Shown here piece by piece: positions 550 through 6,091 of a DNA stretch of 64,000 nucleotides; position 1 is the stretch's first letter, and each line of letters begins with the position of its first letter. The notes below the pieces were generated by a model that had not been told where the DNA came from, searched no databases, and saw only the letters and a program-made list of their open reading frames with translations. A program made the translations under genes and the position numbers. Source of the DNA: an uncultured Spirochaetota bacterium (GTDB lineage Bacteria; Spirochaetota; Spirochaetia; SZUA-6; Fen-1364); NCBI GenBank assembly GCA_963820525.1, contig CAWGAA010000001.1, positions 896,001-960,000 on the forward strand, written 5' to 3'.

Positions 550-965
550 TGCTTTGCTACAAACAATATACGCCAGACCCATCTTCGACACTTTGAAAAA
601 TGAAATGTTTACCCTATAAGGAATTAGAAGACACGGAAATTCTGTTGGCACTACAGATCAACTTCCTCCGTGGTAGCTCTTATTCGCGAACCGTCTGCGG
701 CACTGCGACACCCGCGGCCTGCAATACTGTGTGGCACACCCCCCGCAGGTCGGTGCGCAGATACAGCTTTTTGCCATGCATTTCTACTTCCACTTCCTGA
801 AGTGCTCGAAGGTCCCTATTGATATCCGCCCACTCCAGCTTGTCCCCTTGCTTCTCAAGTCTGGTTTCCAGCTCTTTTCGAAGAACCAAGGCGAGGAAAC
901 TACAGAACACGTGCCCCCGGATGGTGTCGTCAACTTTGTGATAGATACAGCTTGTCGGGTAATTG

Positions 966-1352
966 TTAGCTCTCCGGAGCCCGCTTACCGTGGATACGCG
1001 GGGTTGGCGTCTTTCTCGCGGGGGACGGTAGCTTTTTAAGAAGGCGATCGGTGACGCGCAACGACATCCTCTCCATTTGAGCGATGATTCTGTCCAGTTC
1101 GCGGCCGGTGGCAACCCAGACGGCGAGAAGGTCGGCCTGTTCGCGCGTCAGGCGGACTGTGACGGTTTTTCCATCCACCTTGCGGGTCCACTGGTAGTAG
1201 GGACCGTGAAGGCGGGGCGGAGAAGCTTGGCAGGCGCAGCCGGGCTTGCCGCAGGCCATGAAGCGTTTCAGCAAGGTGCCACGGCGGAAATAGCCGACTC
1301 GGCTGAGGGCGCGCTGGAGCTGCTGGTAGTTTTGCGGAAGATCGGTTTTCAT
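966..1352 (-). CDS. DUF6788-like small basic protein (128 aa), IS passenger gene
   Basis: MKTDLPQNYQQLQRALSRVGYFRRGTLLKRFMACGKPGCACQASPPRLHGPYYQWTRKVDGKTVTVRL... shows the RG..CGKPGC.C...HGPYY pattern. The stop codon is 1 bp from the left IR. Confidence 0.75.
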   Translation of the reverse strand: MKTDLPQNYQQLQRALSRVGYFRRGTLLKRFMACGKPGCACQASPPRLHGPYYQWTRKVDGKTVTVRLTREQADLLAVWVATGRELDRIIAQMERMSLRVTDRLLKKLPSPARKTPTPRIHGKRAPES

Positions 1353-1363
1353 AGAAATATATC

Positions 1364-1391
1364 TTGACAGAAAACTGTCTACAGTTATAAT
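1364..1391 (+). promoter_or_regulatory. Consensus sigma70 promoter with overlapping dyads
   Basis: TTGACA (1364-1369), 16-bp spacer, TATAAT (1386-1391); dyads gacag-aaaa-ctgtc and acagt-TATAAT-actgt. Confidence 0.75.
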
Positions 1392-1559
1392 ACTGTTAGA
1401 TATGTTGCCCGTCAAGCTTCCCCGGCGTTGGTTTTTCTCCCGGATCCTCGCTTCGATGTGCGTGTGCGTCTTTCTCGGCCTGGGCATCTTGATCTTCTCC
1501 AGCGCCCCCTCCATGGCAGCCGCCGATAGAGCAATCGTTCCCCAGGAGGTCACTCGTCC

Positions 1560-2951
1560 ATGCAAACCACTTCTGCCAGTGCCAAGCGCCAACCCGCTCT
1601 GATTCCCAGGTCTATGCGCCCGACCATCTCCATCGCGGAGGACCACAGGCTGGTCCAAATGACCGACACCCTGGACTGGACAGAAATGGAGGAGCAAGCC
1701 CAGCAGATACGATCCGCCAAGCTCAAGAACGCCGCTGGGCGGCCGCCGCACCTGCGCGCCTTGCTGGGAGCTATGCTGCTGATGGCCACCCGAAAGCTGA
1801 CATACCGGGAGGCCGAGGACTTGATCTGCTACTACGCCCCAGCGCGCTACTTGTGCGGGCTGACCGAAACGGAGTGGACCCCGGACTTCACCACCATCCA
1901 GGACTTCACCGAACTGATGGGCGAGCAGGGGATCAAGCTCATCAATCAATGCGTGGTGCAAATGGCGGTGAAACAAAAGTTGGCAGATCCCAAGACACTG
2001 GTGGCCGACACCACAGCGCAGGAAGCGGCGATCCCCTATCCCAACGAGATGGGGCTCATGGCCGGCTTTCTGACCTCGGTGGCTGCCGCAACCCGAAAAG
2101 TTGGCCGGGCGCTGAAGGGATTCGTGCAGGAGACGGTGAGTCAATTCGAGGCGGCCAAGAAGAAGGGGCGAGAGTACCGCCTGTTCGCCAAGACCAAGGA
2201 GAGCAAGGATCGGGTGATGGGGCAGATGATCGCCATCGTCAAGAAGCTCAACGAGCATCTGAGCAAGGCGCTGGGCGCCCCTGCCGCACAGTGGGAAAAG
2301 CTACGCAAGCATGCAATTGTGGCCAAAAGCAAGCTGGTTCAGTTGCAGGAAACGATGAGCAAACTGATCCCGCAGATCCGCTACTGGATTCGCACGGGCT
2401 GCGTGGCCAGCGGCAAGATCATCAGCCTGCATATCCCGCAGCTCTACAGCATCGTACGCGGCAAAGTGGGCAAATCGGTGGAGTTTGGGCTGAGCTGGGG
2501 CATCAGGCGACTGGCGGGGGGGTACCTGCTGGCCACGCTGGCCCCGAATCGCCGCGAGTTACAGGACACGAAGTTCGCGGTGCGAGCGGTCAAAGACCAC
2601 ATCGCGCTCTTTGGCAAGGCGCCGCTGGCTTATGCCTACGACCGTGGTGGATACAGCGCGGAGAATGTCTCCACCTTGAAGAAGTTGGGGGTCAAGGATG
2701 TGGGACTGGCCCCCCGTGGACGTACGCAGTGGTCGGTAAGCGGGCCGGTGCGCGACCGGCTGGTCAGAGAGAGGGCAATGGTGGAGGCGGGAATCGGCAC
2801 CATCAAGAGCCCGAGATACGGGTTCAATCGTCCAGCTGCTCGTTCGGAGGCCATGATGGGAGCGTGTGGGCAGCGCGCTGTGTTGGGATTCAACACCAAC
2901 AAGCTGATCCGCGAACTTGCCGGGCGAAAGGGGATGACGCTGAACGGCTAA
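1560..2951 (+). CDS. IS5-like DDE transposase (463 aa), apparently intact
   Basis: AGGAGG upstream of ATG 1560; N-terminal GRP..LRALLG region, then ADTT, SIVRGK.GK.VEFG, YDRGGYS and RAMVEAGIG.IK motifs (D-D-E). Confidence 0.85.
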   Translation: MQTTSASAKRQPALIPRSMRPTISIAEDHRLVQMTDTLDWTEMEEQAQQIRSAKLKNAAGRPPHLRALLGAMLLMATRKLTYREAEDLICYYAPARYLCGLTETEWTPDFTTIQDFTELMGEQGIKLINQCVVQMAVKQKLADPKTLVADTTAQEAAIPYPNEMGLMAGFLTSVAAATRKVGRALKGFVQETVSQFEAAKKKGREYRLFAKTKESKDRVMGQMIAIVKKLNEHLSKALGAPAAQWEKLRKHAIVAKSKLVQLQETMSKLIPQIRYWIRTGCVASGKIISLHIPQLYSIVRGKVGKSVEFGLSWGIRRLAGGYLLATLAPNRRELQDTKFAVRAVKDHIALFGKAPLAYAYDRGGYSAENVSTLKKLGVKDVGLAPRGRTQWSVSGPVRDRLVRERAMVEAGIGTIKSPRYGFNRPAARSEAMMGACGQRAVLGFNTNKLIRELAGRKGMTLNG

Positions 2952-4675
2952 CGGAATACGGGACGCCTGGTCACGAGACTGACAGTGCACCAGCGGGGTA
3001 CGCACACAAGACACACAGCGCACCGGAAGGCGCGACATAGGTCCGCGGCCCGTCGAACACCGAGCCAACGGGCGCCTGAATTACCCGACAAACTGTAGAT
3101 AGGGCGGGTCTCCAGAAGACTCTTGGCCGAACGGAATATCGATTCCACCATCCACAGCTGCTTGTACTTCAGTGCCACATCCGCGGCGGAAAATGCGGTG
3201 TTGGTGCGAAGCACCCACATGCCGTCGAAGAGTGCCTCCTCGGAGAGCTTGGCCTCGTCGACGGTGAAGTGCTCCTTTCCAGCGGACTTCAGGTATCGCC
3301 TGTAGCCCTTGTTGCCCACGAGACTCTTGTCCCCGCTTTTGAGCTTCTCTTTCAAAGACTCCACGATGGCCTTTCTGTCCGCGGCATCCTTTCGGGCCTG
3401 ATCCTCGTTGTAACACACGATGTAACGCCTATCCCCCACCCACTGCTCCCGCACCGATAGGGGGGAGGGATCCCCTGCCTTCTTCTTCTCTCCTGTGACT
3501 ACTTGGAACTTCTCAGAGGAAGGAAGCACTTCATCGCGCACCGTCTTGTCCTTGCGCATGCGCGCTCCAAGGATGTAGGACATGCCAAGCTCATCAGTTT
3601 CAAGTTTCTCGATCGTCTCTGCGCTTATCATCCCGCGGTCTGCCACCACGCACACCGAAGCGATTGCGAAGCGGCTCTTCAGTCGCTGGACCACAGGGAT
3701 GAGAGAACTGACATCGGTAAGATTGCCCGGCCACAGCTCGCAGCAAATCGGCCGCCCTGCCCCGTCCAGCACCGCGCCGACCACCATCTGTTTCAGGTCG
3801 GGTCTGTGGTCCTTGCTGTGCCCGTACTGTCCCAGGCTTTCTCCCCCTTGCCCCTCGAAGTACAGGCTCGTGGTGTCGAAGAACACCAGCTCCAACTCGC
3901 TGAACAGATCGCGGTTACGGCGAAAAAGCTCCTCTTCGATGAGGTCACTTTCGGCATCGCAGGCTTCGCGCATCATGGCCGAGCTGGATGCTCTGTTCTC
4001 CCAGCCAGCCCATGGCGCGGTAGAGGTGATGAAGCTCGATTCCCTCTGTCCCGCTGATCTGGAAATCCTCTTTCCAGCGCTCTGCCGCGCGGTCGCTTCC
4101 CGGATCGAAGAGGCGGTGCAGCACGGTGAGGAAGATCGCCCGTTCCAAGGAGAAGCGCCATGGGCGAGCGGCCACTTGGCCCTTTATCGCCTCTTTGATC
4201 CCCAACTGCTGCCACAATCGGTCGAAGAGAAGGGCGGGACCGATGGACAGTGTGCGGTGCGCTTGGATGGTGCCCTCGCGGTGAGCATCGATGATCGTTC
4301 GAATCGAGGAGAACTTCGCCAGCGATCGGGTGAGGGCATCGATCTTGCCTGATGCGGCGAGTGCATCCAGTTGGCCGAGGGTGGTGAGGACACGTTGTTT
4401 GACCTTTTTGCCCTCACGCTTGCTTTCAACGATCTGAAGGTACTTGTATCCGTGCGAGTTCTTGATGCGGACGAACATTGCCTGCCCCCCTCTACGGATA
4501 CTACCATGAAGAGGCCATCTATGCAAGCATTTTCTTCATAAACTGCCAATTCGGTGGCACTACATAAAGCGGTCCGGTTGTAAAAAAACCTTCAAATTCC
4601 CTGCAAATTCGAGGGGTACGGCTTCCTGGAGACGCTCAAAGTGTCGAAGATGGGCCAGAGCAGAAAGGCATCACG

Positions 4676-6091
4676 ATGCAAACAGACTGTAGCTCGAATC
4701 TCCTCGGCTTTCAAGACCTGGGGCAGAAAAAAGTCATCGCTGATTTTAACGGTGGAACGATCAGCTCCGATGCGGGAGGATTGCTCCTTCGTGAAGTTGC
4801 CGTTGCATCCGACTACCTTCGCTACTTCGCTGCCTGCTTCCACGATTATCGTAATCAACGGTTTGTTGAGCACAGCGTGCAGGAATTAATCAGCCAGAAA
4901 GTCATGGGGCTATGCCTCGGCTATGAAGACGTCAATGATCATGATTTCTTACGCCACGATCCCCTATTCGCCACCCTGTGTGGAAAGCTGGATCCCAGCG
5001 GGCAGGATAGAGTACATCAGCGTGACAAGGGCAAGGCATGCGCGGGCAAAAGTACTCTCAATCGCCTGGAGACCTGCGAAGGGCTTTTCCATATAACAGC
5101 CACGAAGAAAATAGAGGCTTTGCCGGAGAAGATCGAGAAGTTCTTCGTGAAATCATTTCTTAATAGCTACCCAGGACGGCCGAAGGAAATCGTGTTGGAT
5201 CTGGATGTGACGGATAACGAGCTTCACGGAAAGCAGGAGGGGCGATTCTTCCATGGGTATTACGACTGCTACTGCTACCTGCCTTTGTATATCTATTGCG
5301 GTGACTACCTTCTGTGCGCGAAGCTTCGAAAGGCGGACGTCGATCCCGCAAAGGGAGTGACAACGGAACTGAAGCGCATCGTGGGCATGATTCGCGCTCG
5401 CTGGAAACATACTCGCATCATCGTGCGCGCCGACAGTGGTTTCTGCCGGGAAGAGCTCCTCGCGTGGTGCGAGGCCAACGGGGTCTTTTATGTCATTGGC
5501 CTGAAAAGAAATACAAGACTGATCGCTCGGATCAGGAAACAACTTCGCCAGGCGTGTGCAGAGCATGTACACACGGGGAAGCCGGCCCGACGGTTCAGCA
5601 GCTTCTGGTATCGAACTAAAAAAAGCTGGAGCAGGAGACGGCGGATCATCGCCAAGGCGGAGTACACCGAGGGTAAGGAGAATCCGAGATTTGTGGTGAG
5701 CGATCTCCCCTCTGAGATGTACGATCCCCGGGCGCTGTACGAGGATCTGTACTGTGCCCGTGGGGAGATGGAGAACCGCATCAAGGAGCAACAGTTGTAC
5801 CTGTTCGCGGATCGGAGTTCCTGTTCGTTGATGAAGGCGAATCAGCTTCGGTTGTGGCTTTCTGCTGTAGCCCAGCTTTTGATGAGCGAGCTTCGCCGTC
5901 GTGCGCTGCGGGGGACCGAGCTTGCGAATGCGACTTTCCAGACTATACGGTTGACTCTTTTCAAAGTGGGAGCTCAGGTACGGATCAGTGTCCGCCGTGT
6001 CGTAGTCAACATCTCAACGGGTTATCCGCATCGCGAGCTATTCATTGCAGCGTACCGTGCTCTTCATTCCTCGAATCCGTTGCTCTGTTGA
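4676..6091 (+). CDS. IS1380-family transposase (471 aa), open frame
   Basis: FNGGTISSDAGGLLL, GYEDVNDHD.LR.DP, LDLDVTD..LHG.QEG, RADSGF and YCARGEMENRIKEQQ motifs. Confidence 0.93.
   Translation: MQTDCSSNLLGFQDLGQKKVIADFNGGTISSDAGGLLLREVAVASDYLRYFAACFHDYRNQRFVEHSVQELISQKVMGLCLGYEDVNDHDFLRHDPLFATLCGKLDPSGQDRVHQRDKGKACAGKSTLNRLETCEGLFHITATKKIEALPEKIEKFFVKSFLNSYPGRPKEIVLDLDVTDNELHGKQEGRFFHGYYDCYCYLPLYIYCGDYLLCAKLRKADVDPAKGVTTELKRIVGMIRARWKHTRIIVRADSGFCREELLAWCEANGVFYVIGLKRNTRLIARIRKQLRQACAEHVHTGKPARRFSSFWYRTKKSWSRRRRIIAKAEYTEGKENPRFVVSDLPSEMYDPRALYEDLYCARGEMENRIKEQQLYLFADRSSCSLMKANQLRLWLSAVAQLLMSELRRRALRGTELANATFQTIRLTLFKVGAQVRISVRRVVVNISTGYPHRELFIAAYRALHSSNPLLC

Follow-up and report, generated by a model that had tools for sequence, protein, structure and literature searches.

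A DUF6788 gene and its upstream palindrome as a candidate repressor-operator cassette in an insertion sequence of a Spirochaetota bacterium

Introduction

Insertion sequences (ISs) are commonly regarded as elements of one gene, whose activity is limited by weak promoters, by frameshifting or by factors of the host. What, then, does a second, divergently encoded gene do inside such an element? The question is raised by a stretch of 64,000 nucleotides from an uncultured Spirochaetota bacterium (GenBank assembly GCA_963820525.1, contig CAWGAA010000001.1, positions 896,001 to 960,000; hereafter, the window), in which an IS of 2148 bp occupies positions 948-3095. A preliminary description, made from the sequence alone, had flagged the left third of this element, where a small basic protein is encoded, and had proposed that the protein is an accessory factor of transposition or of its control.

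Here, we report that the protein is a full-length member of the Pfam family DUF6788, that its gene is constantly linked to the transposase gene, and that a palindrome with the core CAGT-N6-ACTG accompanies DUF6788 genes in otherwise different ISs. We consider it likely, on comparative grounds, that the protein binds this palindrome as its operator. The full model, in which DUF6788 binds zinc, occupies the operator and represses its own gene along with that of the transposase, is in our judgement probable, with less assurance than the binding itself.

The DUF6788 protein

The features on which the argument turns are the following:

966-1352, minus strand: DUF6788 gene, 128 amino acids, isoelectric point (pI) 10.9, with a Cys34/Cys39/Cys41/His49 knuckle (open reading frame (ORF) and Pfam PF20586); proposed operator-binding repressor
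1353-1559, unstranded: divergent control region between the two start codons; its core, 1364-1415, is conserved in 10 aligned elements
1364-1391, plus strand: predicted transposase promoter, TTGACA, 16 nt, TATAAT, with a 12/12 match to consensus (consensus scan; TTGACA invariant in 10 elements)
1387-1415, minus strand: predicted DUF6788 promoter, TTGACG, 17 nt, TATTAT, with a 10/12 match to consensus (consensus scan; CGTCAA in 9/10 elements)
1382-1395, unstranded: proposed operator, the palindrome CAGTTATAATACTG (CAGT-N6-ACTG, exact match), whose arms extend imperfectly over 1378-1400

The small gene was found as it had been described: it encodes a basic protein of 128 residues with CGKPGCAC...HGPYY, it is divergent from the transposase gene, and it lies 1 bp from the left inverted repeat. 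Indeed, its stop codon occupies positions 966-968, so that a single base (965) separates gene and repeat. A hidden Markov model search bore out the earlier DUF6788-like assignment, with a match to Pfam PF20586 at an E-value of 1.8e-29 and 102.4 bits (cut-off 27.2) that extends over profile positions 3-101 of 103 (99 covered). In the same scan of the protein, with E-values up to 0.1, DUF6788 was the only family returned, with no Resolvase or other recombinase domain.

The protein contains 26 Lys and Arg residues versus 9 Asp and Glu residues, which gives the computed pI listed above, and it carries the conserved C-x4-C-x-C...HGPY motif. Among 68 diverse DUF6788 sequences, G25, C34, C39, C41, G50 and P51 are invariant, and H49, Y52 and T63 are conserved in at least 90%. 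AlphaFold2 modelled the protein with a predicted local distance difference test (pLDDT) value of 93.5, as a helix (residues 5-17), a strand (26-32), the Cys/His knuckle, two further strands (49-59 and 62-68) and a helix of 38 residues (70-107); the core (residues 18-84), folded alone, reached a pLDDT of 92. With its basic pI, its conserved residues and its confidently predicted fold, the protein looks like a nucleic-acid binder.

The element has a GC content of 60.5%, and long spurious frames are common within it, which could suggest that the small ORF is a chance frame in GC-rich DNA and not a gene. This reading is already refuted by the Pfam match, by the size of the family (606 homologue clusters at 90% identity, and 1957 representatives at 50%, with E-values up to 0.001), by the invariant Cys columns and the nearly invariant His, and by the confident fold; we accord it practically no probability. 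The Pfam record assigns no function to DUF6788, and a full-text literature search found no paper naming the family. Compared with that record, the small protein is a full-length member, and the operator and the partnership with ISs are additions to it.

A palindrome at the divergent promoters

In the control region, the -10 hexamers of the two predicted promoters overlap almost completely (1386-1392), and the palindrome is located right there. We aligned the control regions of 10 distinct related elements and observed that the two -35 boxes, the palindrome and the AGGAGG sequence ahead of the transposase gene are conserved, with a variable spacer beside the palindrome. The arms of the palindrome covary, reading CTACAGT...ACTGTTAG in some relatives and CCCCAGT...ACTGGGG in others, and the terminal repeats are constant in elements whose palindrome arms change.

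The stretch 1416-1543 is variable and dispensable, and is deleted in one lineage. A second inverted repeat pair, 1305-1319 and 1497-1511, was also found, and its second arm lies within this stretch. The ATG at 1402, directly after the predicted start of the transposase transcript, is itself conserved (as GTG in one relative), but the 66-amino-acid frame that it opens (1402-1602) was rejected as a gene: relatives do not preserve this frame, and one lineage has lost most of it. The ATG may mark a short leader, or nothing.

The palindrome extends well beyond this element. In IS1634-type, IS4, IS701 and IS5-type elements, the best palindrome upstream of DUF6788 has the same CAGT-N6-ACTG core with an AT-rich centre. 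The exact core is present in 40 of 61 distinct regions upstream of DUF6788 genes, as compared to 3 of 746 control windows of equal size taken from the same loci; if one mismatch is allowed, the counts are 45/61 and 29/746. All exact sites are positioned 13-57 nt ahead of the first profile position of the protein, and the regions span at least five transposase types, in bacteria and in archaea. In the 5.05-Mb source genome, CAGT-W6-ACTG occurs at seven sites, six of which are just upstream of the six DUF6788 genes, and the reversed pattern does not occur in this genome at all.

Where a DUF6788 gene lacks the motif, another palindrome occupies its position, for example one with a TGTA-tat-TACA core, and the protein is altered in the otherwise conserved WTRKV-GKT strand pair. 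A change of DNA specificity would be expected to leave such a pattern. CAGT-N6-ACTG is not found in the terminal repeats of this element or of two other partner elements, so that the site of the protein would be the promoter, and not the ends. Taken over these comparisons, the palindrome appears to follow the DUF6788 protein, and not the transposase.

The seventh CAGT-W6-ACTG site of the source genome (G000:C3:688632-688645, L142) lies just upstream of a MarR/winged-helix-like gene; approximately one site is expected by chance.

Structural comparisons

We compared the DUF6788 model to known structures. Foldseek returned no row for the whole model in the PDB at E-values up to 0.001; the weak top rows were double-stranded-RNA-binding domains, with an E-value of about 0.2 and a root-mean-square deviation above 12 Å. 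Against viral models, the best E-value was 0.02, for a match without a named function, and VIA-align in wide mode matched only helical hairpins, with Z about 6. The core (residues 18-84) did not yield a closer relative: its best Foldseek E-value in the PDB was 0.36, and its best VIA match (Z 4.1), a chemokine-like three-strand-plus-helix arrangement, supported no family assignment. A profile search of DUF6788 against PDB sequences gave a best E-value of 0.15, an ESM Atlas feature search with the small protein retrieved only unnamed clusters below 0.9, and searches of PHROGs and PADLOC found no phage or defence family for it. A kinship between the DUF6788 strand pair and the N-terminus of IS1634-type transposases was tried and rejected, with an hhalign probability of 0.2%.

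In a different reading, a symmetric core of a two-way promoter, or a host-factor site, accounts for the palindrome, and DUF6788 is a passenger with an unrelated function, such as RNA binding or action on a host protein, that helps the element or its host. The helix-strand-strand-strand-helix order and the weak matches to double-stranded-RNA-binding domains are in line with it, as is the fact that no known DNA-binding fold was matched convincingly. We nevertheless consider it unlikely: the CAGT and ACTG flanks do not belong to the standard parts of a promoter, and still bacteria and archaea both retain them; the motif tracks the gene genome-wide, at six of the seven sites; the palindrome and the strand residues of the protein change together; and the protein matches neither phage nor defence families.

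Constancy of the gene pair

We examined the linkage of the two genes from both sides. In 40 related genomes, the transposase was present in 5 besides the source genome, and all 12 transposase matches that include the N-terminus are accompanied by a DUF6788 match, oppositely oriented and just upstream. These 12 pairs, which leave out two further matches that are C-terminal fragments (one at a contig end), include two decayed copies with stops or frameshifts in both genes. From the DUF6788 side, a named genome collection was searched with a 15-sequence alignment as query. At each of the 11 loci where the small protein is matched in full (66-84% identity), the same transposase (72-84% identity) is encoded divergently; ten are from Spirochaetota genomes and one is from a Terriglobales genome. 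At three more loci, the match to the small protein is partial (residues 25-128, 44-114 or 48-107) and the transposase was not seen; two of these matches start at the locus edge.

The DUF6788 gene is also present in all 5 copies of the element within the source genome. Thus, the earlier suggestion that the small gene is an integral part of the element is upheld both by these 5/5 copies and by the related genomes, and collecting transposase homologues, as had been advised, revealed the same divergent pairing in 12/12 matches with the N-terminus, as did the 11/11 loci found from the DUF6788 side. The transposase was not found in 300 further genomes of the phylum, so that relatives of 30-70% identity fall outside this comparison. 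One annotated distant locus of an 'ISNCY family transposase', on a Skermanella plasmid, is without a DUF6788 gene.

Contigs that are 85-99% like both genes were found in four metatranscriptome runs from one study. Strand, starts and level are unreadable from contigs, and DNA carry-over is possible, and we therefore do not count them as evidence of expression. In some of these runs, cover over 1356-1507 is low, which is not interpretable.

Proposed mechanism

In the mechanism that we infer, from zinc binding, dimerisation and DNA binding to the sign of regulation and its copy-number logic, one zinc would be held by Cys34, Cys39, Cys41 and His49 of the DUF6788 protein, two molecules would pair through the long C-terminal helix, and the pair would bind CAGT-N6-ACTG at 1382-1395. 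Since this site covers both -10 boxes, the bound protein should shut off its own gene as well as the transposase gene, and the outcome would be autoregulation together with repression of the transposase. Acting in trans, the protein would hold down all copies of the element in a cell, with control becoming tighter as copies accumulate, and a burst of transposase would be expected only when the element enters a cell without DUF6788 protein.

The same evidence for an operator is silent on the sign of regulation, and the protein might thus bind the palindrome as an activator or as a direction switch; for example, the transposase promoter might need it to fire. The AT-rich centre is possibly a TATA box in the archaeal partners. 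In bacterial promoters, a site over the -10 hexamer is the typical position of a repressor, and here the site lies over both predicted -10 hexamers. Moreover, the transposase promoter matches the consensus at 12/12 positions and should not need activation. We therefore regard an activating role as quite improbable.

Several points also weigh against an operator-binding repressor. The two promoters are predictions from consensus matches, and the AT-rich centre with its symmetric flanks could be part of a two-way promoter and not a protein site. The right arm of the palindrome in the window has one extra base, and reading of the sequence reveals no Shine-Dalgarno ahead of the small gene. In the wider survey, many of the 61 upstream regions come from related elements and are therefore not independent, and 16 of the 61 are without the motif even at one mismatch. 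Lastly, no solved DNA-binding domain is a convincing match to the DUF6788 fold.

Element ends and genomic copies

The remaining features of the element are:

942-947, unstranded: left target-site duplication, TAGATA, with an identical hexamer at 3096-3101
948-964, plus strand: left terminal inverted repeat, CAGCTTGTCGGGTAATT (repeat search; kept at both ends of 9 related elements)
1544-1549, plus strand: Shine-Dalgarno AGGAGG, 10 nt ahead of the transposase ATG (read from sequence; GGAGGT in all 10 aligned elements)
1560-2951, plus strand: predicted DDE transposase, 463 amino acids (Pfam DUF772), divergent from the DUF6788 gene
3079-3095, minus strand: right terminal inverted repeat (reverse complement CAGTTTGTCGGGTAATT; repeat search)
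3096-3101, unstranded: right target-site duplication, TAGATA

The terminal inverted repeats measure 17 bp and are complementary at 16 of 17 positions. The 2.15-kb unit is present in 5 copies in the genome, with approximately 100% identity; four are intact, and the fifth has been disrupted by a different insertion. The 6-bp duplications of the copies are TAGATA, TAGCTA, TATCTA and TAGCTA; they differ among copies, from which the target is apparently TA-N2-TA. The five near-identical copies, with their own 6-bp duplications, indicate recent activity. With its repeats, its differing target duplications, its transposase gene and its multiple sites, the element has the general attributes of an IS: it is real and recently mobile and, apart from the DUF6788 cassette, it is an ordinary active IS in most respects.

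The ends bear on a further possibility, namely that DUF6788 is a cofactor of transposition, involved in end assembly or in the choice of TA-N2-TA targets, and that the palindrome is mere promoter architecture. In favour of it, the gene is invariably retained within the element, the target hexamers (TAGATA, TAGCTA and TATCTA) are near-palindromes, and the tip of the right repeat starts with CAGT. We nonetheless judge this role improbable, for the DUF6788 family partners at least five transposase types, the ends of two other partner elements are unrelated to those of this element, the repeats remain constant within the family while the palindrome arms change, and the conserved motif is at the promoter and not at the ends. 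Of the two roles that had been put forward for the small protein, that of a transposase repressor is the one favoured, given a palindrome that covers both predicted -10 boxes, covaries and is common to unrelated IS families. That of a target-selection factor did not find support, as the ends of the partner elements that were checked differ and the motif is absent from the inverted repeats.

Placement of the transposase

The element had been called IS5-like, which holds as an approximate kinship; the ISNCY model, however, scores above the IS5 model, and neither cut-off is passed. The best NCBIfam model for the transposase is ISNCY_1 (NF033593), with 160.9 bits against a cut-off of 325 over residues 43-449, and IS5_1 (NF033578) gives 124.5 bits, below its curated cut-off of 275. 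The transposase aligns over its full length to both models. A Pfam scan reported only the N-terminal DUF772 domain and did not report DDE_Tnp_1. On plasmids, the nearest annotated relatives carry ISNCY or IS5 family labels and do not exceed 27% identity. Judged by the curated thresholds, the transposase is a predicted relative of the ISNCY and IS5 groups and a member of neither.

In an alignment of five sequences, including four distant relatives, D150 is invariant, and the AYDRGG and R-x3-VE-x2-IG-x-IK (VEAGIGTIK) motifs align with ADRG and R-x3-E of the relatives, one sequence being misaligned there. This pattern, from a thin alignment, fits a predicted DDE enzyme.

DUF6788 beside other transposases

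We surveyed 39 further distinct loci at which DUF6788 is 40-64% identical to the protein studied here. At 26 of them, a DDE transposase of another type lies divergently upstream of the DUF6788 gene:

15 loci: divergent DDE transposase with a DUF4277 N-terminal domain (IS1634 type)
5 loci: divergent DDE transposase with DDE_5 (IS701)
3 loci: divergent DDE transposase with Nterm_IS4 and DDE_Tnp_1 (IS4)
3 loci: divergent DDE transposase with DUF772 and DDE_Tnp_1 (IS5/IS1182 type)
3 loci: neighbouring ORF without a Pfam hit
5 loci: non-transposase neighbours
5 loci: no ORF of 200 amino acids nearby, or DUF6788 at a contig edge

A further six neighbours of the DUF4277 type came from the related genomes, together with one DDE_Tnp_1 neighbour that is codirectional. 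Hosts of DUF6788 include Acidobacteriota, Chloroflexota, Planctomycetota, Actinomycetota, candidate phyla, and archaea of the Thermoplasmata and Methanosarcinales. The preliminary description had also suggested that the small gene defines a two-component IS. A single new type of IS was not borne out, because the DUF6788 module is common to several IS families.

A bolder reading, which we advance tentatively and hold to be possible and not likely, is that DUF6788 and CAGT-N6-ACTG constitute an exchangeable control cassette, repeatedly acquired by unrelated elements, that the protein is a new, zinc-stabilised DNA-binding domain of three strands plus a helix, and that families silence one another. 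The carriers would be IS1634-type, IS4, IS701, IS5/IS1182-type and ISNCY-like elements, and perhaps serine-recombinase elements. Most cassettes share half-sites, so that the protein of one family could silence other families in the same cell. If this reading is correct, a shared pool of repressor would couple the activity of different jumping genes. The repressor model by itself would already have wider consequences: a dedicated, portable repressor-operator unit would represent a new and widespread form of transposon self-limitation, in at least five transposase families and many phyla. A large family, of 1957 representative protein clusters, would gain a function, and its DNA-binding fold, which may be new and has a simple site of 14 bp, could be used as an orthogonal regulatory part.

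Two further occurrences of DUF6788 were observed. A Vicinamibacterales chromosome (L066-L088, L118) carries an IS5/IS1182-type element of 1840 bp with DUF6788 and the operator CAGTATAACAACTG, in more than 20 near-identical copies, some of them head to tail within 2 kb. In the source genome, the sixth DUF6788 gene (G000:C3:233965-237261, L012) is a divergent member of the family, encodes 113 amino acids and has its own site, CAGTTTATTAACTG. It comes after a group II intron reverse transcriptase gene, and is followed by an IS200-type Y1 transposase gene and then by a large serine recombinase gene; this locus is possibly an element built on a recombinase that has the same regulator and was divided by an IS200 insertion.

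Comparison with known systems

The closest system in layout and logic is the tnpA-res-tnpR region of Tn3 and gamma-delta, in which divergent genes share a control region where the smaller protein binds and represses both. The element described here likewise has divergent genes and one palindromic site over both predicted promoters. The two differ in the regulator and in its site: TnpR of Tn3 is a serine recombinase that resolves cointegrates, whereas the DUF6788 protein has 128 residues and no recombinase domain, and Tn3 has a three-part res site where this element has a single site of 14 bp.

In function, the closest are repressors of the IS1 InsA type. InsA, which has a zinc-finger motif, and OrfA of IS2, IS3 and IS911 are small IS-encoded DNA-binding proteins that lower transposase expression; they are made from the N-terminal portion of the transposase frame, and their binding sites are the terminal repeats. 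In contrast, DUF6788 is a separate, divergent gene, and the site proposed for it is internal and does not occur in the repeats.

With the ISNCY and IS5 families, the element shares a probable DDE-type motif pattern, the N-terminal DUF772 domain, terminal repeats of short length and a target duplication that is likewise short and AT-rich. To our knowledge, a second gene has not been described for either family. The portions consulted of two IS-family surveys (PMC3942029 and PMC2266710) do not mention such a second gene.

Neighbouring mobile elements

The element sits in the transposase gene of a second IS of approximately 1.93 kb, of the DDE_Tnp_1 type, with the ends CCCATCTTCGACACTTTGA..., which occupies window positions 574-947 and 3096-4654. 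A copy of this second IS, 96-99% identical, has inserted into the fifth copy of the studied element and is associated with a 7-bp duplication (G000:C1:2088909-2090836, L141 60-1987); the two elements have thus inserted into each other at different loci. In the window, the transposase of the second IS is in two minus-strand frames, 3945-4526 and 3102-3976, which overlap by approximately 30 nt (3945-3976), and the L141 copy has the same two-ORF layout (201 and 380 amino acids). The two frames reflect either a frameshift mutation or programmed frameshifting.

Directly after the second IS, a third transposase gene (window positions 4676-6091) encodes 471 amino acids that match Pfam DDE_Tnp_1_4 with an E-value of 2e-144. 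The first 6 kb of the window are a nested cluster of mobile elements, beside a glycosyltransferase-like gene at 3-293.

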